From an uncultured Campylobacterales bacterium (GTDB lineage Bacteria > Campylobacterota > Campylobacteria > Campylobacterales > CAZCQG01): a stretch of 64,000 nucleotides of DNA. Positions within the stretch are counted from its first letter, which is position 1. Each line of letters opens with the position of its first letter. The notes under the pieces were generated by a model. That model saw only the letters and a program-made list of their open reading frames with translations. It made no database searches and was not told the origin of the DNA. Position numbers and translations under genes: made by a program. Of the stretch, positions 8,829 through 23,844 are shown piece by piece. The stretch covers positions 2,179 through 66,178 of the forward strand of contig CAZCQG010000007.1 in the NCBI GenBank assembly GCA_964500775.1, written 5' to 3'.

Positions 8829-9926
8829 GTGGATTGCGTAGAGATATTAAAAAAACTCATAACCTGTAAAAGTGTCACTCCCGATGACGGCGGAGCTTTG
8901 GAGTATATTAAATCGTTATTTCCCGATTTTGCTTCCATAGAGCAAGAGATACACGGCGTAAAAAATCTTTTTCTCTACAAAAAAAACGGCGAAGGGAAAC
9001 ATCTCTGCTTCGCAGGGCACGTCGATGTCGTACCTGCAGGCGAGGGATGGAGCTGTGATCCTTTCGGTGCGGAAGAGAAAGACGGATATATCTATGGACG
9101 CGGCACGCAGGATATGAAAAGCGGTATCGCGGCGTTTATGAGCGCTATCGCTCAAAGCGATTTTCAAGGGACTATTTCGATGCTCCTCACAAGCGATGAA
9201 GAGGGGGACGGAATCTACGGCACGAGAGAGATGCTAGCGCATTTGCAAACAATAGCGATGCTTCCCGATTTTGCTATCGTTGCCGAGCCTACAAGCGATA
9301 CCAAAGTGTGTGATGCCATAAAAGTGGGAAGAAGAGGCTCTATAAACGGAGTGCTCAAACTCTACGGCAAACAAGGGCACGCCGCGTACCCGAATAAAGC
9401 GAAGAACCCGATAGACCTTATCGCCCCTTTACTACCGAAATTAGCGGGGCATTATTTTGATAGCGGAGATGATTTTTTTGAACCTAGCCGCCTTACGATT
9501 ACGGACATTCGATCGGGCATAGAGGTCTCAAACGTCACGCCGAGCGAACTAAAGATGCTATTTAATGTTAGAAACTCTACAAATACAAAACCCGAAGATA
9601 TACGAAGCTACATCGATTCGCTTTTTAGCGGGATGGAATATACGCTAGAGCTAAAACAAGGCTCAATGCCGTTTTTGACCGATAGGGATTCGGAGCTTGT
9701 GCACAAATCCAAAGTCGCGGTACAAAAAGTATGCGGCTATCTTCCCGATTGTAATACCAAAGGGGGGACGAGCGACGCTCGCTACTTCGGAGGGGAATAT
9801 GGAATCGACACGGTGGAGATAGGGGTGGTGAATGATAGAATCCACGCTACCGACGAACGGGTAGGAATCGATGAATTGCGAATCTTAGAAGCGGTGTATG
9901 CTACCTTGATACGGAGCCTCTCCTAG
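8829..9926 (+). CDS. dapE: succinyl-diaminopimelate desuccinylase (M20 peptidase)
   Basis: GHVDVVP and TSDEEG metal-binding motifs; 365 aa; GTG start. Confidence 0.9.
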   Translation: MDCVEILKKLITCKSVTPDDGGALEYIKSLFPDFASIEQEIHGVKNLFLYKKNGEGKHLCFAGHVDVVPAGEGWSCDPFGAEEKDGYIYGRGTQDMKSGIAAFMSAIAQSDFQGTISMLLTSDEEGDGIYGTREMLAHLQTIAMLPDFAIVAEPTSDTKVCDAIKVGRRGSINGVLKLYGKQGHAAYPNKAKNPIDLIAPLLPKLAGHYFDSGDDFFEPSRLTITDIRSGIEVSNVTPSELKMLFNVRNSTNTKPEDIRSYIDSLFSGMEYTLELKQGSMPFLTDRDSELVHKSKVAVQKVCGYLPDCNTKGGTSDARYFGGEYGIDTVEIGVVNDRIHATDERVGIDELRILEAVYATLIRSLS

Positions 9927-11095
9927 CCGATACTTACCGTATTTCTCCCTTTTTCTTTTGAGGCATAGAGTGCTTCGTCGGCTCTTTTGAAAATACTCTC
10001 TTTGGAGTCTTGTGTTCGCCATTCTGCGATACCGATACTAATCGTCACCGTCCTTTTGATGCCAAAATCGCTCTCTTCAACGTTTTTTCGTATTTTTTCC
10101 GCAAGCATCTGCGCGTTATCTATCTCTGCTTCGGTGGCGATGATGGCAAATTCTTCTCCTCCGATTCTGCAAAACAGGTCACTTTTCCGAATGCTACTCG
10201 CGATTAAAGCGGTGACTTTTTTAAGAATCTCATCCCCGACATCATGACCGTATCTGTCGTTTATCTGTTTAAAATGATCTATATCGAGTAGTAGTAGTGA
10301 AAATTTATATCCGTATCGCTTTCCGCGCTCTATTTCGAGATAGACCTCTTCGTTGTAGACGTTGCGATTGAAGATGCCCGTGAGCGGATCGATCCTAGAG
10401 TGTATTTCGAGATTCTTCCGTACGAGTGAATTGATGAGCCAAATGATGGCGATAATAAGGACGAAATCGGCAAAAAAGACTACGAACATCAGCTGGAACG
10501 TCGACATCTTCGCTTCAGAGAGGGCTTGTGCCATCCCCACGGTTTGATTTGCCATCTCCCAACACCGTTCGCTTTGCAGGACTATCCTCTCTTTGTACGG
10601 AGCCGTGGATGTTTTTTTATTGTCATCGATGTATTTTTTGAGCAAGATCCATTCGCTATGGAGATTTTGGAGCTGCTCCAAAAAGGCATCCATATTTCTA
10701 GCCTGTATCGCGCTCTTGTCCGTATGTAAAAACTCATAGAAATAGGTATCGATTTTTTGAATATCTTGCGATGCATCGATTCCGTTTGTCTCAAGCTTGC
10801 TGATTTTTTGTATGCCTCCGCGAATCATACCGCTGCGGTTGATGATGCGCGCGTCGTCTTCGACCATCGAAATACCGTGATAAGCGATATAGCCGTTCCC
10901 TATGATGATGAGAATATGGAGCGAGACGATGAGTATGAGTCGAAGACTTGGGGTGATTTTTTTACCGATTTTTGCAAGAGCATAGCGCAGTTCTATTTGG
11001 GAGCCGTTCACGAATACCTCAAATTTTTTCCGTAATTGTAGCGCATTAGCGAGAAATCCCCAAGATAAGGAGCGCATCCCTGTATATCGGCTCAT
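9923..11095 (-). CDS. diguanylate cyclase with an N-terminal membrane-bound sensor (PilJ/NIT-like helix)
   Basis: GGDEF domain (RIGGEEFAII, RYGHDVGD); sensor segment IINRSGMIRGGIQKISKL resembles the PilJ/NarX P-box; two TM helices; start overlaps the upstream gene. Confidence 0.85.
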   Translation of the reverse strand: MSRYTGMRSLSWGFLANALQLRKKFEVFVNGSQIELRYALAKIGKKITPSLRLILIVSLHILIIIGNGYIAYHGISMVEDDARIINRSGMIRGGIQKISKLETNGIDASQDIQKIDTYFYEFLHTDKSAIQARNMDAFLEQLQNLHSEWILLKKYIDDNKKTSTAPYKERIVLQSERCWEMANQTVGMAQALSEAKMSTFQLMFVVFFADFVLIIAIIWLINSLVRKNLEIHSRIDPLTGIFNRNVYNEEVYLEIERGKRYGYKFSLLLLDIDHFKQINDRYGHDVGDEILKKVTALIASSIRKSDLFCRIGGEEFAIIATEAEIDNAQMLAEKIRKNVEESDFGIKRTVTISIGIAEWRTQDSKESIFKRADEALYASKEKGRNTVSIG

Positions 11096-11939
11096 CGATA
11101 AATCCGTATCGTTCGTCGCTAAAGCCGCTCTCCCCTAGTAAGTGCGCCCCCTCAAACACCTCTTTGATATATCGCGCTTTTTCTATCTCATCCTCGCTAT
11201 GGCCAAATACCGAGTTGGCTATTTCTACTTGGTTTGGCGCGATGCACCCTTGCCCTGCCATACCCGATGCTTTCGATATGCGACACCATTCTTCGTAGTC
11301 GATGCTGTTTGTATACTCTTGATAGGTAAAAGAGACGGGTATCGCTCCGCTTGTTCTGCATTTGAGTACGAATCTTGAAAGGATGTATCGTGTCGTAGGG
11401 TTGTCAAAGGCGAGCATCGATTGGGGCAATCCAAGATCGGCGTAGAGATCGAGGATTCCCAAATAGAGTACTTTCACTCTTGGGTGCGAGGCAAATACGG
11501 CGATATTTTCAAACGCCTCTTTTGTCTCGATAGTGAGGTAAATATCTACCGAAGTGTCGCTCACAAAAAGCGCCTCTTCGAGCTGTCGCAGATTCTTAAG
11601 CTTTGGAATCCTAAAAGCATCGGGCTTATATGGTTTAAGTGCGCGTATCTCTTCTAGACCGCCGCTATCGATGTCGTTTACCCTCACGGCTATTTTTGCG
11701 TAGGAGCGTTTGAGATGGGATAGAAATACTTTTGTAAGTTGCAAAGCATAATCTTTATTTGCAATGCCGTCTTCGAGGTTGATAGTCGCTACGTCGGCTT
11801 TGAGTTCATCGAGTTTATTGAGATGCTTTGGGTTGTCTCCACGCACCATGAGATTTGAGCGATAGAGGTTTGAGGCAGGAGGCTCTCTTTTTGTTTCTTT
11901 TGGATTTGGCAGTTGGTGTAGCTCTTGAAAAATCATCAC
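11046..11939 (-). CDS. HpcH/HpaI aldolase / citrate-lyase beta (CitE)-like protein
   Basis: 297 aa; overall resemblance to CitE/malyl-CoA lyase family (INLEDGIA, TIETKEAFENI segments). Family-level call only. Confidence 0.7.
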   Translation of the reverse strand: MMIFQELHQLPNPKETKREPPASNLYRSNLMVRGDNPKHLNKLDELKADVATINLEDGIANKDYALQLTKVFLSHLKRSYAKIAVRVNDIDSGGLEEIRALKPYKPDAFRIPKLKNLRQLEEALFVSDTSVDIYLTIETKEAFENIAVFASHPRVKVLYLGILDLYADLGLPQSMLAFDNPTTRYILSRFVLKCRTSGAIPVSFTYQEYTNSIDYEEWCRISKASGMAGQGCIAPNQVEIANSVFGHSEDEIEKARYIKEVFEGAHLLGESGFSDERYGFIDEPIYRDALLILGISR

Positions 11940-12023: not shown

Positions 12024-13991
12024 CTAGAGTACGCAGGTTTGTATTTTTGCGACGATACTCGGGTCTTCGAGAGTGGAGGTGTCTTGATTGATCGCTTCCC
12101 CTTTTGCGATGGAGCGTAAGATTCTTCGCATAATCTTACCGCTTCTTGTTTTCGGGAGACCGGGGACGAATTTTATATCATCTGCCTTTGCGATCGGTCC
12201 TATCTCTTTTGTGATGACTTGGTTTATCTCTTTATAGAGCTCCACTTCCTCTGCAGCATTGTCTTTGACTTCAGGTTTGAGTACGACGTATGCAAATACC
12301 GATTCCCCTTTGAGATCGTTTGGTTTGCCTACTACGGCGACTTCGGCTACGCTTGGGTGCTTGGCGATGGCTGATTCTATCTCCGCCGTACCCATTCTAT
12401 GACCGCTTACGTTGATGACGTCATCTACCCGTCCCGTGATAGTGATGTAGCCGTCTTCGTCGTATATCGCTCCATCTCCGGAGAAGTATACGGGTTTTCC
12501 GTCTTTTTTGCACGTACCGAAATAGCTACTTTGGTATCGCTCGGGATCACCCCAAATGTTTCGAATCATACTTGGCCAAGGCTTGGTGATGCAGAGATAC
12601 CCTTTTTCATCGATCGCTTTTGGATTCCCTTCTTCGTCGATGATCTCCGCGATGATACCCGGTAGCGGCATCGTAGCACACCCAGGTTTGATAGGAGTGG
12701 CTCCGGGGAGCGGGCTAATCATATGTCCGCCCGTTTCGGTTTGCCACCAAGTATCCACGATAGAGCATCTGCCGCCGCCGATTTCGTTGTAGTACCACAT
12801 CCATGCATCAGGGTTGATAGGCTCCCCTACGGTACCGAGAATCTTGAGTGAAGAGAGATCGTATTTCGCGGGCTCCTCTTTTCCTTCTTTGTGGAGTAAT
12901 CGAATAGCTGTCGGCGCAGTGTAGAATTGATTGACCTTGTACTCCTCTATCATTCTCCACCATCGACCCGCATCGGGATAAGTAGGCACCCCTTCAAACA
13001 TTACCGTCGTAGCACCGCACGCCAACGGACCGTAAACGATATAGGTGTGTCCGGTGATCCAACCCACGTCCGCAGTACACCAATAGGTGTCGTTCTCTTT
13101 CATATCAAACACCCATTCCATTGTGGTTTGTGCCCAAAGGATGTAGCCTGCTTGGTTGTGTTGCACCCCTTTTGGTTTCCCTGTAGAACCTGAAGTATAA
13201 AGCAAGAAGAGCGGGTCTTCGCTATCCATTGCTTCGGGCTCGCAATAGGGTTTTTCTAGCCCAACAAGCTCTTCATAAAGATAGTCACGTCCCGGAACAT
13301 AGTTTATCTCTTGTTTATTTCTCGTCACGATGAGTACTTTTTTAACCGAATCACAGTCCTTGGAGAGCGCCTCGTCTACGACGTGTTTAAGCATATACGG
13401 TTTTCCGCGTCTAAATGCACCGTCAGCGGTGATGACGAGTTTCGCTTGGGCGTCGATGATCCTATCGCGCAACGCTTCGGCACTAAAACCGCCGAAAACC
13501 ACCGAGTGGATAGCGCCAATTCTCGCGCATGCGAGCATCACAAACGCTGCTTCGGGAATCATAGGCATATAGATAACGACCCTATCCCCTTTTTTGATGT
13601 CGAATTTATTTTTGAGCATATTTGCGGTTTTGTTTACTTCGTAATAGAGTTCGCGATACGTAATGACTTGTTTGTCTCCGAGTTCCCCTTCGAAGATAAT
13701 CGCCGCTTTGTTTTTTCTCGATTCTAGGTGTCTATCGATACATTGTACGGAGACGTTCATTTTTCCGCCGTTGAACCACTTGTAAAACGGAGCGTTGCTC
13801 TCATCAAGTACGGTGTGGTACGGCGTCATCCAACTTATCTTCTCATCCGCCAATTTTGCCCAAAAGCCTTCATAATCTTCAGAGGCTTGCAGTGCAAGCT
13901 CTTTATATTCACACATATTTTTTATATTTGCCTCTTTGGCAAAAGCCCTATTTGGCTCAAAAATCGGTTTTTTGTGTAGTTCGCTCATCAA
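12024..13991 (-). CDS. acs: acetyl-CoA synthetase
   Basis: AMP-binding motif [20 protein letters not shown]-terminal SGKIMRR; 655 aa. Confidence 0.97.
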
Positions 13992-14048
13992 ATCTCCTTT
14001 GTGTTATCTTTATCAAAAGATTAGTTGTAGTTTCGCTAAAAACCACAA

Positions 14049-14666
14049 CTAAGCTCTCAAACTCTTTACGCTCTGTAACTTCACATACATCATCGCAGTC
14101 ATTAGCGCGTCGTTATATGCACTATGTTTTCCTAAAGAGGGTATCTTTAAATCCTCCATTATAGTATCAAACCTGAGGTCAATATTTCCTTGCGGAATTA
14201 GTTCTATTTTCTTATCGTAATAGAGAGCCGATAGCTCTATCGCCTTGTTAGGCAGGGCAAAGCCGAAAAGGGGTTTGATTGTTTTGTTGATCATCGCGAT
14301 GTCAAACTCCAAATAATATCCTAGTAAAGGGCGATTTCCTATAAAGTCTAAAAACAGCTCCATCGCATCTTTTTTTTCCATCCCCTCTTTGAGGTCTATT
14401 TCGCGTATATGGTGAATTTTTATACTCTCACTACTCACCTCTCTCTCCGTTTTTATGAGGATACTTAGTTTTTGACTCGCTAGAATCTTATTTCCTTTGA
14501 TTTTGATAGCCCCTATGGATATGATCTCGTCTTCTTTGGGATTGAGACCCGTCGTCTCACAGTCGAAGCTGACTACTTCCTCGCCTCTGTATTTTTCAAA
14601 AAGGGCTTTATGCTTCTCTTCTTTTATCCTCCTTTTGTAGTAGAGATTCCTAAGCGTATTGACCAT
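14049..14666 (-). CDS. DEDDh 3'-5' exonuclease (DnaQ/epsilon-like), copy 1
   Basis: ExoI FDCETTGL, ExoII-like YYLEFDIAMIN, ExoIII HSAYNDA; ATG abuts the stop of the upstream DUF294 gene (TAAATG). Confidence 0.85.
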   Translation of the reverse strand: MVNTLRNLYYKRRIKEEKHKALFEKYRGEEVVSFDCETTGLNPKEDEIISIGAIKIKGNKILASQKLSILIKTEREVSSESIKIHHIREIDLKEGMEKKDAMELFLDFIGNRPLLGYYLEFDIAMINKTIKPLFGFALPNKAIELSALYYDKKIELIPQGNIDLRFDTIMEDLKIPSLGKHSAYNDALMTAMMYVKLQSVKSLRA

Positions 14667-16496
14667 TTAGCTCACCATATTGAGTTTAAAATGGTATGTG
14701 ACGTATTTTTTGAACCTATCGACTATCTTAAAAACATCCCGCAATAAATCTCGCTCAAACTTGCTTATCTCGCTCGGGTTGATGTAGTTGTCCGCATCGT
14801 GTTTGAGTGAGATCATATTGAGTTGGTGTTGGAGTCGCAACGTCAATAAAAAAGTAAACGCTTCAATGAGCTCGGTGGAGAAGATCCTCTCAAGTATTCC
14901 CATATTATTGAGTTCTTTGATTCTTTCGATGGTGTTAGTGCTTTTGCATTTTTTTTCTAATGCCAAACTTCTGATGCCGTGTACGATGGGGAAAATCGCC
15001 CCTTTTTTGATGTCAAGCTTGTCTTTGTGTTGGTCTTTTTCGGTGACAAAGTTGGAAAATAGAGACAAAGGGGTCTCAAAAATAATCGTAGCTTTCGCGA
15101 AATGTGCGAAAAATCCTTTGTTGTCGTCTATATAGGGGTAGATCTTCTCTTTGAGATCATCCAAAAGACTCTTCTCGCCTGCGACAAAAGAGGCATCGAA
15201 TAAAATTGCCAGATTCATAATATTGTTCCCGCTTGGATCTGCTATCCACGTGGCGATGTCTTGATGAAAGCTTTTTTGATCTTTGCGCCATAGCGGATTG
15301 TTTATCATAATACCGCCGCTACAAGCAGGGAATCCAAAATCAATTAAAGCGGCGTTGAATTTGTTCGCAAAATTCTCAATGTCTGCATAATTGTAGCCGT
15401 CTTTGATGATGAGTGCATTATCTTGATCGGTGCGAAGCGTTTGCTCTTTTCTCCCCTCGCTACCTAGGACGATGAGTGCCGAGTTGTCGATAAGCTCTTT
15501 TGGCGCAAGCAACTCAAAGAGCCGCTTATAAATTTTTGCGTTGAGATCGGAGAGGAGTTTGGTGATATGGCGCACCTTTACGCCGTGTTGCTGCAGTGAT
15601 TTGATGAGGTAGATGATATTGCTGCTCGCCACTTTGAGTTCATCGAGATTCTTCGCTCGTAAGATTTGCATATTTGAGAGATGCGCTTTTGAGGAGACGG
15701 CGCTTAGGAGATCCACCTGCTCCAAAATGCCTATAATATCTCCCCCTTCGGTTACCGCAAGACGCTGAATGTTGTTCTCTATCAAGAGCAAAAGAGCGTT
15801 AAATAAAAAATCCGACGCTTTGACGCTTATGAGTTTTTTTATCGCGATAGAGCCTATGGGCGCATCGTAATCTCTATTTTGGAGTATCACCTTTTCTCTC
15901 AAATCGGTATTCGTAACGATACCGAAACCTCCGTCGTCAAAGGAGACGATCAGCGAATCGCTCCCGTTTGCGGACATAATCTTTACTCCTGAAAGTATCG
16001 ATTCTCTTTCGTTGATAAAAAAGGGATCACGTAGGTGGATGTCCTCGACTTTTGTCGCCATAAAAGTCGCCGCTTCTTTATTCGAATCCCGCTCCAATAA
16101 TGCGTGCATTTTTTTTGAGATGTCGGCGAGATAATAGCTTTCAAATGCGCTATCGGTTTGTAGTAGTTTGGTAAAAAACTCTTTTTTTATACAGAAACAG
16201 ATCGCCTCTTCGGCGCAAATATATCCGTTTATATACTTGTTTTGGAGTATGGAGGCGGCATCGAAACTATCTTTTTTAGTCAAGATTCCGACGTTATCTT
16301 CGGCATCTATCTCTTTGATGGCACCTTTGCCTATGATGACGTAGTATTCGGGCTCGCTCCCGATTTTTGCAACCGTATCGTTTTTTTTGAAATATAGAAT
16401 GTCGAGGTTGGATAATGTTTCTTCAAACACGCTGCCGTGTAAAGTATTAAAAGGTTCAATAGATGATAGAAAACTTCTATAGTCTAGTGTTTCCAA
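14667..16496 (-). CDS. cNMP-binding / CBS-pair / DUF294-type nucleotidyltransferase signalling protein, copy 1
   Basis: cNMP-binding-like N-terminus, CBS region, pol-beta NTase motif GSEGRKEQTLRTDQDNA, C-terminal helical substrate-binding region; TTG start. Confidence 0.8.
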   Translation of the reverse strand: METLDYRSFLSSIEPFNTLHGSVFEETLSNLDILYFKKNDTVAKIGSEPEYYVIIGKGAIKEIDAEDNVGILTKKDSFDAASILQNKYINGYICAEEAICFCIKKEFFTKLLQTDSAFESYYLADISKKMHALLERDSNKEAATFMATKVEDIHLRDPFFINERESILSGVKIMSANGSDSLIVSFDDGGFGIVTNTDLREKVILQNRDYDAPIGSIAIKKLISVKASDFLFNALLLLIENNIQRLAVTEGGDIIGILEQVDLLSAVSSKAHLSNMQILRAKNLDELKVASSNIIYLIKSLQQHGVKVRHITKLLSDLNAKIYKRLFELLAPKELIDNSALIVLGSEGRKEQTLRTDQDNALIIKDGYNYADIENFANKFNAALIDFGFPACSGGIMINNPLWRKDQKSFHQDIATWIADPSGNNIMNLAILFDASFVAGEKSLLDDLKEKIYPYIDDNKGFFAHFAKATIIFETPLSLFSNFVTEKDQHKDKLDIKKGAIFPIVHGIRSLALEKKCKSTNTIERIKELNNMGILERIFSTELIEAFTFLLTLRLQHQLNMISLKHDADNYINPSEISKFERDLLRDVFKIVDRFKKYVTYHFKLNMVS

Positions 16497-16624
16497 AAAA
16501 ATAGTCTCCGCATTTCTATTAGTATTTCTTATTCTATTTTTACTTCATAGCATAAGCGTAGCAAACTAAAAATACCGCAATAAAAAAGGTGAAAAATGTA
16601 GATCGTGTGTAGAATCTAAACATT

Positions 16625-16648
16625 ATTCACGAGGAAACCCTCGTGAAT
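16625..16648 (-). terminator. perfect 10-bp hairpin immediately after actP
   Basis: ATTCACGAGG-AAAC-CCTCGTGAAT, 2 nt after the actP stop; weak U-tract, so it could be a terminator, attenuator or processing site. Confidence 0.5.
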
Positions 16649-16650
16649 AC

Positions 16651-18309
16651 TTAATGCGAGGATGCCCCCTCTGCTCCGATACCTGTTTGAGAACGGACAT
16701 ATTGTGCTTCGAAATCATCTTTCTCTTTTTGTGCGTTATCACTCTTATCCGTGATAGAAAATAGCCAAATACCGACAAACGCTACGGTGACCGAGAACAG
16801 CGCAGGGTATTTGTACGGGAACGGAGCCGAACCTGCAGGATTGCCCATAACCGCTTCCCAGACCGTCGGGCTTAGGATAACGAGTATTACCGCCGTTGCA
16901 AGACCCAAGCTACCGCCGATAACTGCACCTCTTGTGGTGAGCTTGCTCCAAAACATCGAAAGGAAAAGAATCGGAAAGTTTGCAGATGCCGCGATAGCAA
17001 ATGCAAGCCCCACCATAAAGGCGATGTTTTGCTTTTCAAACGCGATTCCGAGGAATATCGCGATAATACCTAGTGCAACCGTAGTGATTTTAGAAACTCT
17101 CACTTCGCTCATCTCATCCGCCTCACCTTTTTTTAGGACGCTTGCATATAAGTCGTGTGAAATAGCGGAAGCACCTGCGAGTGTGAGTCCTGATACAACA
17201 GCCAAAATAGTCGCAAACGCAACCGCGGATATGAATCCAAGGAACATACTTCCCCCTACCGCGTCCGCTAAATGGATAGCTGCCATATTGTTTCCGCCCA
17301 TTATTTTGCCTGCCGCATCAAGATATGCGGGGTTTTGTGACACAAGGACGATAGCGCCGAAGCCGATAACAAACGTCAAGATATAGAAATATCCGATAAA
17401 GCCCGTCGCATAGAAGACAGATTTTCTCGCCTCTTTTGCATCCGCAACGGTAAAAAATCTCATAAGGATATGCGGAAGTCCCGCCGTACCGAACATAAGC
17501 GCGATACCGAGCGAGATAGCCGAGATAGGATCGCTCACCAAGCCTCCGGGAGCCATAATAGAATCGCCACCCGTATGTGTTTCTATTGCTTTTGTAAAGA
17601 GCGTCTCAAGGCTGAAGCCCATCATATAGAGTACCGCCAAAGCCATAAACGTAGCACCCGAGAGGAGGAGTACGGCTTTGATGATTTGTACCCAAGTGGT
17701 CGCTAGCATTCCGCCGAATGTGACGTAGAGAATCATAAGTACCCCGACGATAACGACCGCATATTCGTACGGCAGACCGAAAAGGAGTTGGATAAGTTTT
17801 CCCGCACCTACCATTTGCGCGATGAGGTAGAGGATGACCGTGGCGATAGAGCCAAGTGCCGCCAATGTTCTAATAGGCATTTGTCTTAGTCTATAGCTTG
17901 CGACATCGGCAAAGGTATATTTACCGAGATTTCGAAGTTGCTCGGCTATGAGGAAGAGGATGATAGGCCATCCGACTAGGAAACCTATGGAATATATAAG
18001 ACCATCGTATCCTTTGAGGTATACGAGACCTGAAATTCCCAAAAAGCTTGCCGCAGACATATAGTCGCCCGCGATTGCCAAGCCGTTTTGAAAGCCGGTG
18101 ATTCCGCCGCCGGCAGTATAGAAATCTTTTGCCGTTTTTGTTCTTTTGGCTGACCAGTAGGTGATCCCGAGTGTCGCAGCGACAAAGAGAAGGAACATAA
18201 TGATAGCCGAGGAGTTCACCTCTTGTTTTTGTACTTCGCCGCTGATGGCATCTGCCCCGAAGGCAAACGTGGCAAGAAAAATAAGTGCTAGCGTAACAAT
18301 ACTTTTCAT
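16651..18309 (-). CDS. actP: cation/acetate symporter (SSS family)
   Basis: 552 aa, about 14 TM helices, preceded by a DUF485 gene as in yjcH-actP. Confidence 0.92.
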
Positions 18310-18312
18310 CCC

Positions 18313-18618
18313 TTACTCCTTTATACTTTGTTTGATATTGTGGGTGAGTTCGTCAAATTCGGTATTGGCTCTTTTGACATAAATGCCCGTCAAGGCGAAT
18401 GCAAATATGATTACCCCGATACCTACGGGAATCCCTAGTGTAATCACTCCGCTGATTTTCGCCGCAAATAGGCTCGGGGCGAAAGCGATAATAAGTATAA
18501 ATAGGTAATAAACTACCAACATAGCAATCGATAGTTGCCATGCAAACTTGCTTCTTTTTGTAACAAGTTCATTGAATTTCGGGTTGCTTTTGATCTTAGC
18601 AACAAGCGCTTTATCCAT
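18313..18618 (-). CDS. DUF485 (YjcH-like) inner membrane protein
   Basis: Two-TM protein directly upstream of actP; start set at MDKALV, preceded by AAGGAG. Confidence 0.85.
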   Translation of the reverse strand: MDKALVAKIKSNPKFNELVTKRSKFAWQLSIAMLVVYYLFILIIAFAPSLFAAKISGVITLGIPVGIGVIIFAFALTGIYVKRANTEFDELTHNIKQSIKE

Positions 18619-18721
18619 GTTCACTCCTTGTAATATTATTGACACGAAGCTATTGTATGGGATGAAAATAGCGTGAATATAGCAATGGAGAAATAGTCGT
18701 ATTTAAGCGTAAAAAAAAGAT

Positions 18722-19339
18722 TTATGTGGGAAGTTTTGAAACATTTTGAAGTTTTATGTACATAAGCGCGGTCATAATAGCATCATTGAGCGCATCGTGC
18801 TTTCCCAAAACAGGGAGGTTGAGATCTTTTAGGATCGAATCAAACCGCAGATCTACGATTCCTTGGGGAATGAAGCCGATTTTTTTATCGTGATAGATCG
18901 CCGAAACCTCTATTTGTTTATTGGGCAGAGTGATGCCGAGTCTCTTCTTGAGGTATTTATTGATCATCGCTATGTCAAACTCTAGATAGTAGCCCACAAG
19001 CGTTCTATTGCCGATAAATTCCAAGAAGTCTTCCAATACTCCATCTAGCTCTTCGGCATCATGCAAATCACACTCCCGTATCATATGCACCTTGATGCTT
19101 GTCTCGTTGAGCTTCCCTTTGGGTTTTACAAATCGTTGGAATTTACTTTCGCTTAGGATTCTGTTTCCCCGCACTTTTACCGCGCCGATAGAGATAATAT
19201 CGTCCTTTTTGGGATCCAATCCCGTAGTCTCCGTGTCAAAAACCACCACTTCATCCCCGTCATAAGGTGCAAAAAGGTAGTCGTATTTTGGATCGGTGAG
19301 TTTGCGTCTATTGAGCCGACGTGCAAATTTTTCAAACAT
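18722..19339 (-). CDS. DEDDh 3'-5' exonuclease (DnaQ/epsilon-like), copy 2
   Basis: FDTETTGL, YYLEFDIAMIN, HDALNDA; ATG at 19339 overlaps the upstream stop (ATGTTTGA). Confidence 0.85.
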   Translation of the reverse strand: MFEKFARRLNRRKLTDPKYDYLFAPYDGDEVVVFDTETTGLDPKKDDIISIGAVKVRGNRILSESKFQRFVKPKGKLNETSIKVHMIRECDLHDAEELDGVLEDFLEFIGNRTLVGYYLEFDIAMINKYLKKRLGITLPNKQIEVSAIYHDKKIGFIPQGIVDLRFDSILKDLNLPVLGKHDALNDAIMTALMYIKLQNVSKLPT

Positions 19340-21170
19340 ATTCAAGTTTGTATCTCGCAATGAGAAATTTTTTAAAACGATTGACTACTTTGAAAGCGTC
19401 TTTGAGCATATCTTTGTCGATCGTACGCAAAGAATCGGGGTTAATATAGTTGTCCGCCAAAGAGCCCGTATCTATTTTTTGGAGGCTTGTGCGGAGTTTT
19501 AACGTATGAAAATAGTTAAAAGATTCAATAAGCTCCCCCGCGAATTCTTTATCCAAGATTCCGAGGTTATTTAGCGCTTTTATCCGCAAAACCGTATTTG
19601 TCTCCGCAAGGGCATTTTCAAGTGCCAAGGTTCGTATCCCGTGCACGATAGGAAATACCCCGCCTTTTTTGAGGTCAAGTTCATTTTTGTGTTTATTCTT
19701 GTCTACTTTGAAATCGCTAAAAAGCCCGATGGGTGTGGGGAACAAAAGGGCGAACGAACCGAAAGTGTTTAAGAACGCGGTGTTTTTTTCTATTTTTGCA
19801 AATACTACCGTTTTGAGCTCTTGGAGGAGTTTGGGATCGCCCGCGATACAGTATGCGTCAAAAAATATCGCAAGATTCATAAAGTCGTCCCGATCTTTTC
19901 TATTGACCCACTGGAGGAGCTGTTCGCTAAACTGCGTAAATCTTTTTCTCCATAAAGGATTATTTACCATAATATCCCCCTCGCATTTGGGGTAGCCGAA
20001 ATCACAAAGCGCTTCGCTAAACCTTTCGCAAAATTCGGCAATGACGGTATCGTCAAACGGACACGAATCGGCAATTATCAGCGCATTGTCTTGATCGGTA
20101 CGCAATATCTGCTCACCTCGCCCCTCGCTTCCCATCACAAGTAGTGCGGTGTGTGCTTCAAGACCTTTGGGTGCGAGCAGAGTAAAAAGTTTTTCAAAGA
20201 GTTTTCGATTGAGTTCGCTTAGGAGTTTAGAGATGTAGCGGACTTTCACCCCTTGGGCGAAGAGGGCTTTGATGATTCTTATAAATTTGACACTTGCCGC
20301 TTTGAGCTCCGCTAGGTCACGCGCTCGTTCTATCTCGTTTGCGATGGCATAGGTGTGAGATGAGAAAAAACTTGTGAGTGACATTTGGTCTAAGATTCCG
20401 ATTATCTCCCCTATTTTATTTTTGACGACGAGCCTTTTTATGCCGTAGCGTGTCATAAGGAGTTGAGCGTTAAATAAAAAATCATCCTCTAAAACGCTCT
20501 TTAGCCCAAACGTGGTGATGTGCTCCACTTTGGCATCGAAACTAAGACGCTCTAAAATTACCTTTTCTCTAAAATCGGTATCCGTAGCGATACCGAACTC
20601 TTCCCCTTTTTTTACGAGTATCGAAGTAAGCGAATGACTTTTCATAGTACGTACGGTCTCGTATATCGATTCGCTTGCGTCTACAGAGTAGGGCTTTTGG
20701 ATGTATGCGTCGCTCACTTTGGCGATCATAAAGCTTGCAAGCTCTTTATTTTGGGTGGTTGCGAGATTTTCGCTCAATTTCTCCGAAATGCTTTGGAAGA
20801 AAAAATGCTCTATTTTTTTGTTTTGATGGAGGATTTTTAAAAAGATCTCTTGGGGTAAGAGGTAGCAGATACTCTCCTCTAATGCTTTGAATCTGTTTTT
20901 GATTCTCCGCTCTATTAATGAGAGGGGATCAAAGAAGGCGTGCTTTTCAAGGATAGATACGTTCTCGTCCGCTTCGGATGCTAGCTCTTGTACTTTTCCT
21001 TTGATGATGAAATAGAGGAAATGCTCTTGCGTGTTTGAATCAAGAATATATTGCCCTTGCTTAAAATACTCAATTGAGAGATTGTTGCACAGCATCTCGA
21101 TTTCACGATCTTCAAGTGCGTCGAATGGAGGAATGGAGAGGATAAAACTTTTTTGCTCATGAAAGCTCAT
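19332..21170 (-). CDS. cNMP-binding / CBS-pair / DUF294-type nucleotidyltransferase signalling protein, copy 2
   Basis: Same architecture as copy 1; NTase motif GSEGRGEQILRTDQDNA; start set at MSFHEQ, preceded by GGAGG. Confidence 0.8.
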   Translation of the reverse strand: MSFHEQKSFILSIPPFDALEDREIEMLCNNLSIEYFKQGQYILDSNTQEHFLYFIIKGKVQELASEADENVSILEKHAFFDPLSLIERRIKNRFKALEESICYLLPQEIFLKILHQNKKIEHFFFQSISEKLSENLATTQNKELASFMIAKVSDAYIQKPYSVDASESIYETVRTMKSHSLTSILVKKGEEFGIATDTDFREKVILERLSFDAKVEHITTFGLKSVLEDDFLFNAQLLMTRYGIKRLVVKNKIGEIIGILDQMSLTSFFSSHTYAIANEIERARDLAELKAASVKFIRIIKALFAQGVKVRYISKLLSELNRKLFEKLFTLLAPKGLEAHTALLVMGSEGRGEQILRTDQDNALIIADSCPFDDTVIAEFCERFSEALCDFGYPKCEGDIMVNNPLWRKRFTQFSEQLLQWVNRKDRDDFMNLAIFFDAYCIAGDPKLLQELKTVVFAKIEKNTAFLNTFGSFALLFPTPIGLFSDFKVDKNKHKNELDLKKGGVFPIVHGIRTLALENALAETNTVLRIKALNNLGILDKEFAGELIESFNYFHTLKLRTSLQKIDTGSLADNYINPDSLRTIDKDMLKDAFKVVNRFKKFLIARYKLEYV

Positions 21171-21380
21171 AGGAAACCTCCGTGTAAATATGGAAGTGTA
21201 ACACACGAAAAATTATGTTACTAAAATATACAGCGCTATATTGATGCTACACTACTGTAACATTTTGTAGCATTGAGATTCAATTTCTCGGTGAATTTTC
21301 ACATTTTTGTCAAATGCTATGTTCATGCTACGTTTGGAGAATACTATAAAAAGTGTGAAAAAATTACAGAAGGAGTGTTT

Positions 21381-21641
21381 ATGGAGTTATCTGAAAAGAT
21401 GCAAGCCTATTGGCAAGCAAACGTAAAGTTGCTTTTGTCATGCTTGGCAGTGTGGTTTATCGTCTCTTTTGGCTTCGGAATAATATTGGTGGATGTCTTT
21501 AACGGCATCTCGCTAGGCGGCTATCCGTTAGGGTTTTGGTTTGCACAACAAGGGTCGATTTTCGTCTTTATCGCGATCATCTTTTATTATGCAAAGAAGA
21601 TGAACACGATTGATAGAGCCTTTGACGTTCACGAAGAGTAG
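21381..21641 (+). CDS. DUF4212 small subunit of a sodium:solute symporter
   Basis: 86-aa two-TM protein (WFAQQGSIFVF) directly upstream of a VC_2705-type symporter; AAGGAG Shine-Dalgarno before ATG 21381. Confidence 0.8.
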   Translation: MELSEKMQAYWQANVKLLLSCLAVWFIVSFGFGIILVDVFNGISLGGYPLGFWFAQQGSIFVFIAIIFYYAKKMNTIDRAFDVHEE

Positions 21642-21650
21642 GGGGAGAGT

Positions 21651-23408
21651 ATGGAATTACAAACAATGATATGGCTTGTAGTAGGAGCTTCATTTGCACT
21701 CTATTTTGCTATCGCTATTTGGTCGAAAGCAAAAAGTACGAGTGAGTTTTACGTAGCGGGCAAAGGAATCCATCCCGTTGCTAACGGTATGGCTACGGCG
21801 GCGGACTGGATGAGTGCCGCTTCGTTTATTTCGATGGCGGGTCTTATCGCATTTATGGGATACGGCGCATCGGCATACCTTATGGGTTGGACGGGCGGAT
21901 ACGTTTTGCTTGCGTTGTTGCTTGCTCCGTATTTGAGAAAATTCGGTAAGTTTACCGTTCCTGATTTTATCGCCGATAGATTTTACTCGCAAACGGCAAG
22001 AATCGTTGCGGTAGTCTCGCTACTAGTTATTTCGCTCACATATATCGTCGGGCAAATGACGGGTGTGGCGGTTGCGTTTTCGAGATTCCTCGAATTGGAT
22101 CTCTTTTGGGGGATGGTCGTCGGGATGGCGGTTGTTTTTAGCTATACCGTTCTAGGCGGTATGAAAGGAATCACCTACACGCAAATAGCGCAATACGTGG
22201 TACTAATATTTGCTTACACCGTTCCTGCGATATTTATTTCCTTGCAACTTACAGGCTGGGTTTTACCGCAAATAGGTTTGGGTGCGACGCTTAGTGATGG
22301 AAGCGGAATGTTTATGCTTGATAAACTCAACCAAGTAGCAACCGATCTAGGTTTTGCCGAATATACGACAAACTCAAGTTTTGGGATGATGAACATTTTC
22401 TTGCTTACGCTTTCACTTATGATAGGGACGGCGGGCTTACCGCACGTAATCGTGAGATTCTTTACCGTGCCGAAAGTAAAAGATGCTAGAAAATCTGCCG
22501 GCTGGGCACTCGTGTTTATCGCTATCCTCTATACTACTGCCCCTGCAGTCGGTGCGATGGCGTTTTATAATCTTTCAAAAACAATTCACGTAGGCGAAAA
22601 TATAAAAGACAATCAAACGCTTGCGTATGAAGAGCGACCGCAATGGGTGAAAAACTGGGAACAAACCGGTCTTTTGAAGTTTGAAGATAAAAACGGCGAT
22701 GGACACATTCAGTTTTACAACGATAAAAATGCGAAATTTGCCGCGCAAGCCGAAGAATACGGCTGGAAAGGGAATGAGCTAAGCGTAAATAGAGATATTA
22801 TGGTACTTGCAAACCCTGAAATCGCGAAACTTCCTAATTGGGTAATCGCTCTTGTTGCCGCGGGCGGTATCGCTGCTGCACTTTCTACGGCAGCAGGTTT
22901 ATTGCTTGTTATCTCATCGTCTATTTCACACGACTTGTTAAAAGGGGTATTCGTGAAAGACATTAGCGAGAAAAATGAACTTCTCGCAGGTAGACTAGCG
23001 ATGACGGTTGCGATTTTGGTCGCAGGGTATCTCGGTCTCAATCCTCCCGGATTTGCCGCGCAAACGGTTGCTTTGGCATTCGGACTTGCCGCTTCGAGCC
23101 TTTTCCCTGTCCTTATGATGGGAATCTTCTATAAAAAGATGAATAGACAAGGTGCGATCGCAGGTATGGTTTCAGGTCTGCTTATAACCGTAGGCTATAT
23201 CTTTATGTATAAAGGAATCTTCTTTATTCCGGGGACAAACCTTCTTGCTGATAACGCGAGTGGATGGATACTCGGTATCTCTCCTCAAGGTTTTGGAGTA
23301 ATCGGAGCAATAGTGAACGTGGTAGTCGCGATAGCGGTATCAAAAGTAACTCCTCCGCCTGCACAAAATATTCAAGATCTCGTAGAGAGTGTGCGGATTC
23401 CTCGATAA
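21651..23408 (+). CDS. sodium:solute symporter, VC_2705-like large subunit (probable acetate/monocarboxylate uptake)
   Basis: 585 aa SSS-family protein; similar to ActP in the conserved GTAGLPH(I/V)xxRFFTV segment. Confidence 0.85.
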   Translation: MELQTMIWLVVGASFALYFAIAIWSKAKSTSEFYVAGKGIHPVANGMATAADWMSAASFISMAGLIAFMGYGASAYLMGWTGGYVLLALLLAPYLRKFGKFTVPDFIADRFYSQTARIVAVVSLLVISLTYIVGQMTGVAVAFSRFLELDLFWGMVVGMAVVFSYTVLGGMKGITYTQIAQYVVLIFAYTVPAIFISLQLTGWVLPQIGLGATLSDGSGMFMLDKLNQVATDLGFAEYTTNSSFGMMNIFLLTLSLMIGTAGLPHVIVRFFTVPKVKDARKSAGWALVFIAILYTTAPAVGAMAFYNLSKTIHVGENIKDNQTLAYEERPQWVKNWEQTGLLKFEDKNGDGHIQFYNDKNAKFAAQAEEYGWKGNELSVNRDIMVLANPEIAKLPNWVIALVAAGGIAAALSTAAGLLLVISSSISHDLLKGVFVKDISEKNELLAGRLAMTVAILVAGYLGLNPPGFAAQTVALAFGLAASSLFPVLMMGIFYKKMNRQGAIAGMVSGLLITVGYIFMYKGIFFIPGTNLLADNASGWILGISPQGFGVIGAIVNVVVAIAVSKVTPPPAQNIQDLVESVRIPR

Positions 23409-23428
23409 ACTTTTCATATGTGTCCGTA

Positions 23429-23447
23429 AAAAGGAGTTTCTCCTTTT
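23429..23447. terminator. bidirectional hairpin between the symporter gene and crcB
   Basis: AAAAGGAG-TTT-CTCCTTTT, 8-bp stem in the 46-nt convergent gap. Confidence 0.5.
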
Positions 23448-23454
23448 GCGGTCA

Positions 23455-23844
23455 CTAACCTCTCATCAATAACAACGTAATCTTATAACCTATTGCCGCT
23501 GCTATTACGGAGCCAAAAAGATTGAGCGCCATATTTGAAAACCCCATAAGGATATTTCTATTTTCAAAAAGGATAAAAGTCTCGATAGCAAATGTAGAAT
23601 AGGTGGTGAAAGCTCCTAAGATTCCGGTAGCTATAAAAGAGCGGATATGCGGCGGAATAAGCTCTAAGTTGTGTGATAAGACGAATATCGCCCCCATAAG
23701 AAACGAACCTAATACATTTACGGTAAATGTCCCTATCGGTATGTCGTGCGAAAAGGTTTTACTTGCCCATCCATTGACGTAGGCACGTAAAATAGCCCCT
23801 AAAAATCCGCCGCTACCGATTGCTAGAAAGCTCTGCCAGCTCAT
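23455..23844 (-). CDS. crcB: fluoride channel CrcB/FluC
   Basis: GSGGFLGAILRAYV N-terminal motif, four TM helices; start set at MSWQSF and overlaps the plsC 3' end. Confidence 0.85.
   Translation of the reverse strand: MSWQSFLAIGSGGFLGAILRAYVNGWASKTFSHDIPIGTFTVNVLGSFLMGAIFVLSHNLELIPPHIRSFIATGILGAFTTYSTFAIETFILFENRNILMGFSNMALNLFGSVIAAAIGYKITLLLMRG

Follow-up and report, generated by a model that had tools for sequence, protein, structure and literature searches.

A 64,000-nucleotide stretch of DNA from an uncultured Campylobacterales bacterium (the window) carries two copies of a sensor nucleotidyltransferase gene (NT1, NT2), each followed by a DEDDh 3'-5' exonuclease gene (EXO1, EXO2), in one island with acetate-related genes. 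What does such a pair do there, and why does it occur twice? The window holds two copies of a widespread two-gene module sited beside sodium-coupled uptake transporters. The module is of the family of PP_0354/PP_0353 from Pseudomonas putida (alloputida) KT2440, PA3233/PA3232 from P. aeruginosa and Pflu5625 from P. fluorescens SBW25 (a COG2905 protein plus an RNase_T-like exonuclease), a member of the CrbS/R (MxtR/ErdR) regulon.

Layout of the island

The minus-strand order is NT2-EXO2-DUF485-ActP-NT1-EXO1-Acs, with DUF4212/VC_2705 divergent on the plus strand. Pfam and NCBIfam identify the neighbours (Acs, ActP, DUF485, DUF4212 and a VC_2705-type symporter) as an earlier sequence-only reading of the locus had named them.

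12024 to 13991, minus strand: Acs, acetate--CoA ligase (NF001208 1045 bits; TIGR02188 1004 bits, cut-off 725)
14021 to 14052, minus strand: predicted terminator-like 14-bp hairpin directly 3' of EXO1, before acs (consensus scan only)
14049 to 14666, minus strand: EXO1, DEDDh 3'-5' exonuclease, 205 aa (NF006601 288 bits)
14667 to 16496, minus strand: NT1, sensor nucleotidyltransferase, 609 aa (Pfam domains)
16651 to 18309, minus strand: ActP, cation/acetate (monocarboxylate) symporter of the SSF family (NF006903 966 bits, cut-off 750; SSF 408 bits)
18313 to 18645, minus strand: DUF485 (YjcH-like) small membrane protein, ActP partner (Pfam DUF485 120 bits)
18722 to 19339, minus strand: EXO2, DEDDh 3'-5' exonuclease of the NF006601 family, 205 aa from ATG 19339 (full ORF before start correction, 18722 to 19360)
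19332 to 21170, minus strand: NT2, cNMP-binding-like domain, CBS pair, DUF294 NTase and DUF294_C, 612 aa from ATG 21170 (full ORF before start correction, 19332 to 21206)
21171 to 21380, no strand: intergenic region between the divergent NT2 and DUF4212/VC_2705, bounded by the corrected starts
21381 to 21641, plus strand: DUF4212 small subunit of the VC_2705-type symporter, 86 aa from an internal ATG (DUF4212 111 bits, TIGR03647 108 bits)
21651 to 23408, plus strand: VC_2705-family sodium/solute symporter, SSF (TIGR03648 838 bits, cut-off 321)

The likeliest start of NT2 is ATG 21170, which has GGAGG ahead of it and agrees with the end coordinate in the sequence-only reading; for EXO2 it is ATG 19339, which gives an 8-nt overlap with the NT2 stop (ATGTTTGA junction). 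The EXO1 ATG (14666) abuts the NT1 stop TAA (14667 to 14669; junction TAAATG), and from its translation DUF4212 most likely starts at 21381.

Domains and folds of NT and EXO

The domain calls made from sequence hold for both ~610-aa products, in which Pfam finds cNMP_binding, CBS, DUF294 and DUF294_C (NT1: DUF294_C 159 bits, DUF294 131 bits, cNMP_binding 29.5 bits, plus CBS; NT2: DUF294 137 bits, DUF294_C 144 bits, cNMP_binding 37 bits, plus CBS). The NTase motifs quoted with those calls were located in the NT pair as GSEGRKEQTLRTDQDNA and, in NT2, GSEGRGEQILRTDQDNA. The catalytic residues of NT1 (G345, S346, D357, D359 and D434) are invariant across 66 homologues, with GS...DxD and a third Asp kept in 66/66. 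NT carries the G-S-x-G-R-x-E...D-x-D motif of the protein nucleotidylyltransferases GlnE, GlnD and Legionella DrrA/SidM, and its DUF294_C shares a Pfam clan with the GlnD and GlnE C-terminal domains; GlnE/GlnD models in Pfam and NCBIfam gave no NT match. Foldseek (NT1 AF2 model, pLDDT 84.5) matches the catalytic module plus helical C-terminal domain best to DrrA (6yx5), the GlnE N-terminal half (1v4a) and the GlnE C-terminal half (3k7d), each a protein adenylyltransferase. The sensor domains are unlike those of GlnE, GlnD and DrrA; the CBS pair carries an adenosyl-ligand motif, and in the NT subfamily alignment the cNMP-like pocket is without the canonical Gly-Glu and Arg-Ser/Thr residues.

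The exonuclease call likewise stands, with RNase_T found by Pfam in both ~205-aa products (100 bits for EXO2) and scores above the cut-off of 189 for NF006601 (PRK09145 3'-5' exonuclease; EXO1 288 bits, EXO2 275 bits). The motifs FDCETTGL and FDTETTGL, YYLEFDIAMINK and H-x4-D lie where the sequence-only reading had seen them, in the EXO pair. Alignment of 28 EXO homologues shows invariant DEDDh residues (EXO1 D35, E37, D122, H181 and D186) and an invariant Y-x-D-x-K...IPQ...DL..D block; a helical extension at the N-terminus is conserved as well. Best Foldseek matches to EXO1 (AF2 model, pLDDT 86.8) are the DnaQ domain, the DinG and PolC exonuclease domains, Pol III epsilon and Cap18, with Orn also among the matches; in sequence and fold, the nearest relatives of EXO are nucleic-acid exonucleases. 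Fold and the five catalytic residues are common to EXO and the DnaQ-type DEDDh enzymes (Pol III epsilon, PolC, the DinG domains, Cas2-DEDDh, Cap18 and RNase T), but EXO has its own equivalog model and conserved blocks and is encoded right after a DUF294 protein.

These folds bear on two alternatives. It is possible but unlikely that control is exerted on RNA, with NT adding untemplated 3' nucleotides to transporter mRNA, a small RNA or tRNA and EXO trimming them, thereby governing how long the transporter message lasts or how well it is translated (compare the CCA-adding enzyme and RNase T on tRNA ends). The enzymes nearest to EXO, namely DnaQ, PolC, DinG, RNase T and ExoI, each degrade nucleic acids 3'-5', and mRNA degradation was speculated by the P. 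putida authors (PMC9927547). However, the NT module matches protein AMPylases, with no RNA nucleotidyltransferase or cGAS-type enzyme among its top 50 Foldseek matches; neither NT nor EXO has an RNA-binding domain by Pfam; and the pair follows unrelated SSF and BCCT transporter genes, whose mRNAs have no obvious common feature. We consider it improbable that NT makes a small-nucleotide signal (an oligonucleotide, linear or cyclic, or else a conjugate of a nucleotide) that EXO degrades, as Orn does pGpG, and that modulates the transporter or, by way of the cNMP-like domain, NT. That domain and the DEDDh enzymes Orn and Cap18 among the EXO fold matches speak for such a signal, as does the pairing of a synthase with a hydrolase, typical of second-messenger systems; against it are the non-canonical cNMP-like pocket and the lack of any nucleotide-binding receptor domain in ActP, VC_2705, DUF485 or DUF4212 by Pfam, and we know of no GlnE/DrrA-like nucleotidyltransferase that makes one.

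Pairing, descent and linkage to transporters

NT and EXO are paired and inherited together almost without exception. Both occur in an identical set of 44 among 251 Campylobacterota genomes, EXO lies directly downstream of NT in 52/53 NT genes and NT directly upstream of EXO in 52/52 EXO genes; seven of the 44 hold two pairs, as does the window's own genome besides. Among 251 Pseudomonadota genomes, a DEDDh match falls within 4.5 kb of 86/115 NT genes, and 9 of 17 'unpaired' NT loci tested have a more divergent RNase_T protein downstream. Some NT genes are orphans lacking any exonuclease, with GS type III, NAD-GDH or PTS genes, among others, as neighbours. The EXO and NT trees agree with each other (r = 0.85 between pairwise identities), although such co-clustering may simply be inheritance as one block. 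That NT and EXO are functionally unrelated neighbours, EXO serving housekeeping DNA proofreading or repair and NT being an independent sensor, is scarcely credible: EXO does go in some sources under the name 'DNA polymerase III subunit epsilon', but its NCBIfam scores stay below the equivalog cut-offs for dnaQ (TIGR01406 52-69 bits against 223), RNase T and Orn, the NT stop and EXO start are coupled and the trees congruent, and the co-occurrence (44/44 genomes) and adjacency (52/53) already contradict it.

The two copies are 44% identical in NT (609 aa, E 2e-174) and 57% identical in EXO (193 aa, E 7e-83). By sequence comparison they are distinct lineages and no recent duplication, each grouping with orthologues from other genomes in a separate clade, which agrees with the old duplication proposed earlier. 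The closest NT2 relatives are at 67% (L016) and 62% (G177/L087). The idea that each copy serves one transporter fared less evenly: comparison of indels with the closest relative has NT2-EXO2 present or absent jointly with DUF4212/VC_2705, as that idea would have it, but in the trees NT2 and EXO2 group in an ActP-linked clade, outside the Campylobacterota VC_2705-linked clade. Arcobacteraceae islands (such as L035, L036, L037, L040, L041, L052 and L061) resemble the window in having two NT-EXO pairs with DUF4212-VC_2705 and DUF485-ActP. Their genes all run in one direction (DUF4212-VC_2705-NT-EXO-DUF485-ActP(-DUF485-ActP)-NT-EXO), whereas the VC_2705 operon of the window is inverted, and one of their pairs belongs to the VC_2705-linked NT clade, which holds neither window pair.

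Gene-neighbourhood counts across genomes bear out the synteny as real and very strong. The usual order across 80 loci is [DUF485-ActP or DUF4212-VC_2705]-NT-EXO, with a transporter directly upstream of about 70 of 92 NT genes. ActP or VC_2705 is present in 44/44 pair-bearing Campylobacterota genomes, and among the 251 VC_2705 is found only with the NT-EXO pair (14/14). NT clades track transporter type, the VC_2705 label changing 3 times on the tree against 24.9 with shuffled labels. ActP itself can do without the pair: 40 of 80 ActP-bearing Campylobacterota genomes have no NT-EXO, and the same holds for E. coli, our control (no strong DUF294 match and no EXO match above cut-off). Divergent NT-DEDDh pairs also lie downstream of a BCCT transporter in Desulfurispira, Marinobacterium and one Rhodocyclaceae contig. 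This sister pair (a cNMP-CBS-DUF294 protein plus an NF006602/PRK09146 exonuclease) has the same two-gene layout directly downstream of a sodium-coupled LeuT-fold transporter, but of a different family from those of the window; its NT is 25-31% and its EXO about 24% identical to the window's, and its cNMP domain scores much higher, at 60 bits. NT-EXO is attached to transporter genes of three families, although gene order could reflect co-regulation and not direct action on the transporter.

Pseudomonas genetics and a possible switch on uptake

The PA3232-PA3235 cluster cited in the sequence-only reading is published in P. aeruginosa, and that no biochemical function is known for the pair was still so as of a September 2026 preprint. 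Window pairs and PP_0354/PP_0353 have in common the architecture (cNMP-like, CBS pair, DUF294, DUF294_C), a likeness taken from published descriptions, the NT-then-EXO order and the linkage to actP/yjcH and acs. The window differs in having two paralogous pairs in one island of a 2.2-Mb Campylobacterota-type genome, directly flanking DUF485-ActP and diverging from DUF4212/VC_2705. In P. putida on pyruvate, loss of EXO (pp_0353) phenocopies loss of ActP and deletion of NT (pp_0354) does not (PMC9927547; preprint); actP-I and pp_0353 are reported to matter jointly at 5 mM acetate (PMC9927547). The DUF4212 symporter has a neighbour with an 'RNase T domain' as a cofit gene in Shewanella and P. stutzeri.

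That the target is instead Acs or another acetate/propionate enzyme, by the logic of GlnE, we hold to be very unlikely. Pair 1 of the window does lie between actP and acs, Acs comes after EXO in many Campylobacterota loci, and both P. putida deletions cut growth on propionate, where actP-I is dispensable (preprint). But the transporter is the tightest partner, Acs adjoining the pair in only about one third of the 80 loci; the BCCT-linked sister pairs have no acs nearby; and on 20 mM acetate, where acsA-I is essential, EXO and NT deletions grow intact (PMC9927547; preprint). Acs is thus disfavoured as the object of the proposed writer and eraser.

We tentatively favour, with a little less than even confidence, a reading in which NT, gated by its CBS pair, is the writer and turns the adjacent transporter off, with EXO as the eraser. 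The pair would be a two-enzyme, post-transcriptional switch on the adjacent sodium-coupled (LeuT-fold) uptake transporter. NT would be a soluble sensor whose CBS pair and non-canonical cNMP-like domain respond to a signal of metabolism or energy state and gate the GlnE/DrrA-like module, which would add one or a few nucleotides to a target hydroxyl (most likely on the transporter, its small subunit or a transporter-bound factor) and lower uptake. EXO, a DnaQ-fold DEDDh hydrolase held in proportion to NT by translational coupling, would free the nucleotide as 5'-NMP and restore uptake. We infer that both enzymes handle the same bond and that NT is the negative arm, with target, nucleotide and sensor ligand as proposed. 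One island of the window joins two monocarboxylate symporters (DUF485-ActP and DUF4212-VC_2705) and Acs with two pairs of separate descent, which would not be interchangeable.

In favour of this reading, DEDDh enzymes cut an R-O-P(5'-NMP) bond to free 5'-NMP, a geometry that Tyr-O-AMP shares, and glutamine synthetase is classically de-adenylylated with snake-venom 3'-exonuclease/phosphodiesterase; against it, we know of no DEDDh enzyme that de-nucleotidylylates a protein. Removal by a separate DEDDh protein would differ from GlnE (a second NTase domain), GlnD (an HD domain) and DrrA (SidD). A mechanistic precedent only is MntA/HepT, a type VII toxin-antitoxin, unrelated in sequence and without an exonuclease partner: as in NT, a pol-beta-fold NTase works with a KNTase_C/HEPN clan domain, and MntA enzymes build oligo-AMP chains on protein tyrosine (PMC7641770, PMC13000451), chains that would suit a true 3'-5' exonuclease as substrate. 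The proposed writer/eraser logic is consistent with the DrrA/GlnE fold matches and the EXO/ActP phenocopy on pyruvate, and the propionate phenotypes mean that a simple one-target on/off model is insufficient for all phenotypes. Also counting against it are the genomes with ActP and no pair, the orphan NT genes and the kinship of EXO to nucleic-acid exonucleases. The co-occurrence counts in Campylobacterota, the transporter link, the BCCT-linked pairs and the fold matches of NT and EXO are new, and NT-EXO modules may switch uptake off and on.

Gene content and layout of the island

Open-reading-frame listing and Pfam/NCBIfam searches confirmed the two minus-strand pairs and the neighbours that the sequence-only reading had described, each pair comprising a DUF294 sensor nucleotidyltransferase (NT1, NT2) and a DEDDh exonuclease (EXO1, EXO2). 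The minus strand runs NT2, EXO2, DUF485, ActP, NT1, EXO1, Acs and a CitE-like lyase, with DUF4212/VC_2705 divergent on the plus strand.

Genes of the island (coordinates within the window, strand, product and basis of assignment)
19332–21170, minus, NT2 (ORF listing, Pfam/NCBIfam; start refined from the junction)
18722–19339, minus, EXO2 (Pfam/NCBIfam; start refined from the junction)
18313–18645, minus, DUF485 protein (Pfam), directly upstream of ActP
16651–18309, minus, ActP (NF006903, 966 bits, cut-off 750)
14667–16496, minus, NT1 (Pfam)
14049–14666, minus, EXO1 (Pfam/NCBIfam)
12024–13991, minus, Acs (ORF listing, Pfam/NCBIfam)
11046–11939, minus, CitE/HpcH-like lyase (Pfam/NCBIfam), after acs in the same direction
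21381–21641, plus, DUF4212 protein (TIGR03647, 108 bits), directly upstream of the VC_2705-family symporter
21651–23408, plus, VC_2705-family symporter (TIGR03648, 838 bits, cut-off 320.75)

The two symporters are identified by above-cut-off scores combined with their small partners: NF006903 with an adjoining DUF485 gene for ActP, TIGR03648 with TIGR03647 immediately 5' for VC_2705/DUF4212. Reading the junctions places the NT2 start at ATG 21170, preceded by GGAGG, and the EXO2 start at ATG 19339, with an 8-nt overlap at the NT2 stop; the NT1 TAA is directly followed by the EXO1 ATG. From these overlapping and abutting junctions, NT and EXO are predicted to be translationally coupled in pair 1 and pair 2 alike. 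Transcription units were deduced from gene spacing only; a consensus promoter scan gave 20 matches versus 18.9 in shuffled sequence, no excess, and was left unused. Between EXO1 and acs is a 14-bp hairpin (14021–14052, minus) that resembles a terminator and has a T-rich tail, so acs may be transcribed from a promoter of its own. Further along, after acs and in the same direction, is a GGDEF diguanylate cyclase gene (9923–11095) whose start overlaps the lyase gene. The host genome (2.18 Mb, 99% complete, with relatives in the Campylobacterota) encodes NT1 and NT2 as its only strong DUF294 genes; a third, weak match falls within an 845-aa frame that is probably GlnD.

Domains and predicted folds of the two proteins

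The earlier domain calls (cNMP_binding, CBS, DUF294, DUF294_C and RNase_T) were upheld by Pfam, and every catalytic motif quoted for the NT and EXO copies is present. NT1 and NT2 share the COG2905-type architecture of ~600–640 aa, formed by a cNMP_binding domain, a CBS pair, DUF294 and DUF294_C. The CBS pair (residues 148–290) also matches solved CBS-pair proteins, and its first repeat retains the G-h-h-T-x-x-D adenosyl-ligand motif. Catalytic residues G345, S346, D357, D359 and D434 are invariant across 66 homologues, both window copies included. The cNMP-like domain is divergent, barely exceeding the Pfam cut-off (29.5 and 37.2 bits for the two copies against 27.5) and having lost the canonical Gly-Glu and Arg-Ser/Thr contacts of the CAP/PKA cassette. 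At this position (NT1 residues 70–100, window about 16197–16289) the subfamily consensus reads D-S-F-D-A...K..F...E-E, with the Lys missing from NT1. Judged from these residues, the ligand is probably not a cyclic nucleotide, and we doubt that cAMP occupies this sensor domain.

An AlphaFold2 model of NT1 (pLDDT 84.5) was searched with Foldseek, its catalytic half giving DrrA as the best match (6yx5_B, E 1.6e-8, TM 0.63 on target), followed by both halves of GlnE (1v4a, 4e-8; 3k7d, 7.7e-8). The model is consistent with an NTase fold joined to a helical substrate-binding domain like that of GlnE/DrrA. Neither NT1 nor NT2 matched any GlnE/GlnD family model in Pfam or NCBIfam at E ≤ 0.001.

Both EXO copies match RNase_T and pass the equivalog cut-off (189) of NF006601 (PRK09145), at 288.2 bits for EXO1 and 274.7 bits for EXO2. 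They fail the dnaQ equivalogs (52–69 bits versus 222.7 for TIGR01406 and 196 for NF004316); by these profile scores EXO is not the replicative proofreader of Pol III. The family alignment shows DEDDh residues D35, E37, D122, H181 and D186 to be invariant, together with an extra invariant block that is family-specific, and an AlphaFold2 model of EXO1 (pLDDT 86.8) finds DnaQ-type exonucleases in a fold search. NT and EXO might instead exert control at an RNA 3' end, which we regard as unlikely, or make and remove a small nucleotide signal, which seems less likely still; among the top 50 Foldseek matches of the NT1 model there is no RNA nucleotidyltransferase or cGAS-type enzyme.

Pairing, transporter linkage and descent

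The pair occurs in ~1/6 of sampled Campylobacterota genomes and ~1/3 of sampled Pseudomonadota genomes. EXO exceeds its cut-off in 44 of 251 Campylobacterota genomes, and exactly the same 44 hold strong DUF294 matches. For 52 of the 53 NT genes, EXO follows in the same orientation within a few hundred bases, and each window NT has its DEDDh exonuclease gene immediately downstream, bearing out the synteny described in the sequence-only reading. The lone Campylobacterota exception is a divergent NT ahead of DUF4212-VC_2705 in genome G130. There (locus L086, 3259–5127, on contig C10) the exonuclease-less DUF294 protein precedes DUF4212-VC_2705-DUF485-ActP-NT-EXO-Acs, a cluster with two transferases and one exonuclease in total.

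The 251 Pseudomonadota genomes sampled contain 115 NT genes, of which 86 lie within 4.5 kb of a DEDDh match; in 83 of these 86 the match is downstream on the same strand. A follow-up scan covered 17 NT loci with no NF006601 or NF006602 match: nine are followed by an RNase_T-domain protein that diverges further (in some cases 465–740 aa long, with PAS or receiver partners), and eight have no hydrolase, being true orphans among unrelated neighbours (for example, GS type III and NAD-GDH). In the genomes sampled, no PHP or metallophosphoesterase partner was seen in place of the exonuclease. Orphan DUF294 proteins adjoin genes for type III glutamine synthetase and NAD-specific glutamate dehydrogenase at two loci (L100, 1159–5699; L101, 1042–5170), a hint that some of the family act in nitrogen metabolism, much as GlnE does. 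About 26 Pseudomonadota genomes show a third layout, in which a shorter NT (about 480–540 aa) accompanies a 700–770-aa DEDDh-bearing protein. The DEDDh domain sits at the C-terminal end of this large protein (L099, 3317–5536; L105, 2984–5497; L107, 1262–3802), which carries a PAS domain in L099; a stand-alone receiver protein separates the two genes in L105, and L107 has a 129-aa ORF of equal size.

None of 105 EXO open frames was fused to an NT. A 988-aa ORF in locus L064 was rejected as a natural fusion because it is an artefact: a 100-N scaffold gap carries the frame on into an acetate kinase gene. The trees of EXO and NT agree (the EXO2 clade, of 20 rows, equals the NT2 clade in composition) and the pairwise identities of the two proteins correlate at r = 0.85; NT and EXO have thus been inherited as a unit, without partner swapping. 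That they are unrelated genes which happen to be neighbours is scarcely credible.

In a set of 80 loci spanning several phyla, DUF485-ActP or DUF4212-VC_2705 usually comes first, then NT, then EXO, with Acs after the pair in only about a third. All 44 pair-bearing Campylobacterota genomes have ActP or VC_2705. ActP occurs in 40 Campylobacterota genomes with the pair and 40 without, which form separate clades; VC_2705 occurs in 14, all of which carry the pair, always adjoining. In Desulfurispira, Marinobacterium and one Rhodocyclaceae contig (L089, 5651–10090; L090, 4291–8627; L091, 4274–8638), a BCCT transporter gene is immediately followed by a sister pair, whose cNMP-CBS-DUF294 transferase has 25–31% identity to the window NTs and whose exonuclease matches NF006602. 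The Hahella sister pair (L092) stands by itself. The transporter-first gene orders, the BCCT-linked sister pairs and the restriction of VC_2705 identify a sodium-coupled LeuT-fold transporter, rather than acetate metabolism in itself, as the constant partner of the pair.

The two window copies agree with the by-eye estimate of roughly half-identical paralogues, NT1 and NT2 sharing 44% identity (E 2e-174) and EXO1 and EXO2 57% (E 7e-83). NT1-EXO1 groups with pairs lying after ActP and before Acs, including those of metagenomic contig L084 (75% identity to NT1) and Chrysiogenota (57–58%). NT2-EXO2 groups with L016, L020 and G177 (62–67%), within an otherwise ActP-following clade; the VC_2705-linked clade of Campylobacterota contains neither window pair. 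A simple in-genome duplication is rejected, the copies falling in different, well-supported clades of both trees with orthologues elsewhere. In L084, the closest relative contig (Acs 94% identical), gene order from purC to acs matches that of the window, except that a 5.1-kb block (window 18703–23815 versus L084 3441–3665) is missing. This block contains crcB, NT2-EXO2 and the inverted DUF4212/VC_2705 operon; the second symporter was therefore gained or lost along with the second pair, as a single block. The proposal that each pair serves one transporter is accordingly favoured by position. Phylogeny does not favour it, and an assignment of NT2-EXO2 to VC_2705 on phylogenetic grounds is rejected because the clade is ActP-linked; only the indel speaks for it. 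Arcobacteraceae islands also have two pairs, but in another gene order.

A writer/eraser reading and its alternatives

The family, a COG2905 protein with an RNase_T-like exonuclease, has been studied as Pflu5625 in Pseudomonas fluorescens, PP_0354/PP_0353 (NT/EXO) in P. putida and PA3233/PA3232 in P. aeruginosa. In Pseudomonas, the CrbS/R (MxtR/ErdR) acetate-switch system targets these genes directly, and the pair is part of the acetate-switch regulon in both Vibrio and Pseudomonas. Deletion mutants have existed since 2017, and a September 2026 preprint still terms the function unclear; the window feature is a duplicated addition to an already known, biochemically uncharacterised module.

In P. 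putida on pyruvate, EXO deletion impairs growth exactly like deletion of actP-I or yjcH, and deletion of NT (pp_0354) causes no growth defect (PMC9927547). In transposon fitness data, actP-I and pp_0353 are reported to be jointly important at 5 mM acetate. Cofitness also links the DUF4212 symporter to an adjacent 'RNase T domain' gene in Shewanella amazonensis and P. stutzeri. At 20 mM acetate neither NT nor EXO deletion has a phenotype, under conditions where acs is essential. The sequence-only reading had offered Acs or the transporters as targets. Acs now looks unlikely, given its place beside about a third of loci and the intact growth of the deletion mutants at 20 mM acetate. Three results, namely the almost obligate, co-inherited NT–EXO unit, its position after transporter genes of three families and the resemblance of the NT module to protein AMPylases, lead away from Acs and towards transport control, and we consider action on Acs or another enzyme very improbable.

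A model in which NT and EXO work against each other on the neighbouring transporter system, NT as writer and brake, EXO as eraser and release, fits the obligate pairing, gene coupling, transporter synteny and AMPylase-like fold. It also fits the asymmetric phenotypes, in which eraser loss mimics transporter loss and writer loss is silent. We infer this as the best-supported reading, so that the earlier writer/eraser proposal stands in that form, and hold it tentatively, at somewhat less than an even chance. An AMPylase fold and an exonuclease fold do not clash chemically: DEDDh enzymes cleave R-O-P(5'-NMP), releasing 5'-NMP, and a venom 3'-exonuclease classically frees glutamine synthetase of its AMP. 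MntA enzymes, for their part, assemble chains of oligo-AMP on a tyrosine residue of a protein (PMC7641770, PMC13000451). A fuller scheme, which we find possible but rather doubtful, has a CBS-gated DUF294 writer placing a GlnE/DrrA-type mono- or oligo-nucleotidyl mark on LeuT-fold transporters or their accessory subunits, and the DnaQ-fold DEDDh EXO erasing it; candidate targets would be ActP/YjcH, VC_2705/DUF4212, BCCT or accessory subunits. Both P. putida mutants have a phenotype on propionate, and orphan NT genes exist; a simple writer/eraser model is therefore incomplete.

From the same three results that lead away from Acs, the writer/eraser reading predicts that NT deletion suppresses EXO deletion. 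The mark would act after translation as a reversible brake on nutrient uptake, widespread but hitherto unrecognised, and the host would possess two non-interchangeable writer/eraser pairs placing its two monocarboxylate symporters under independent control. Its duplicated island, like that of Arcobacteraceae, is a natural test of pair-to-transporter specificity. If the model holds, the pairs would represent a new class of post-translational uptake control and would give the DEDDh fold a novel function.
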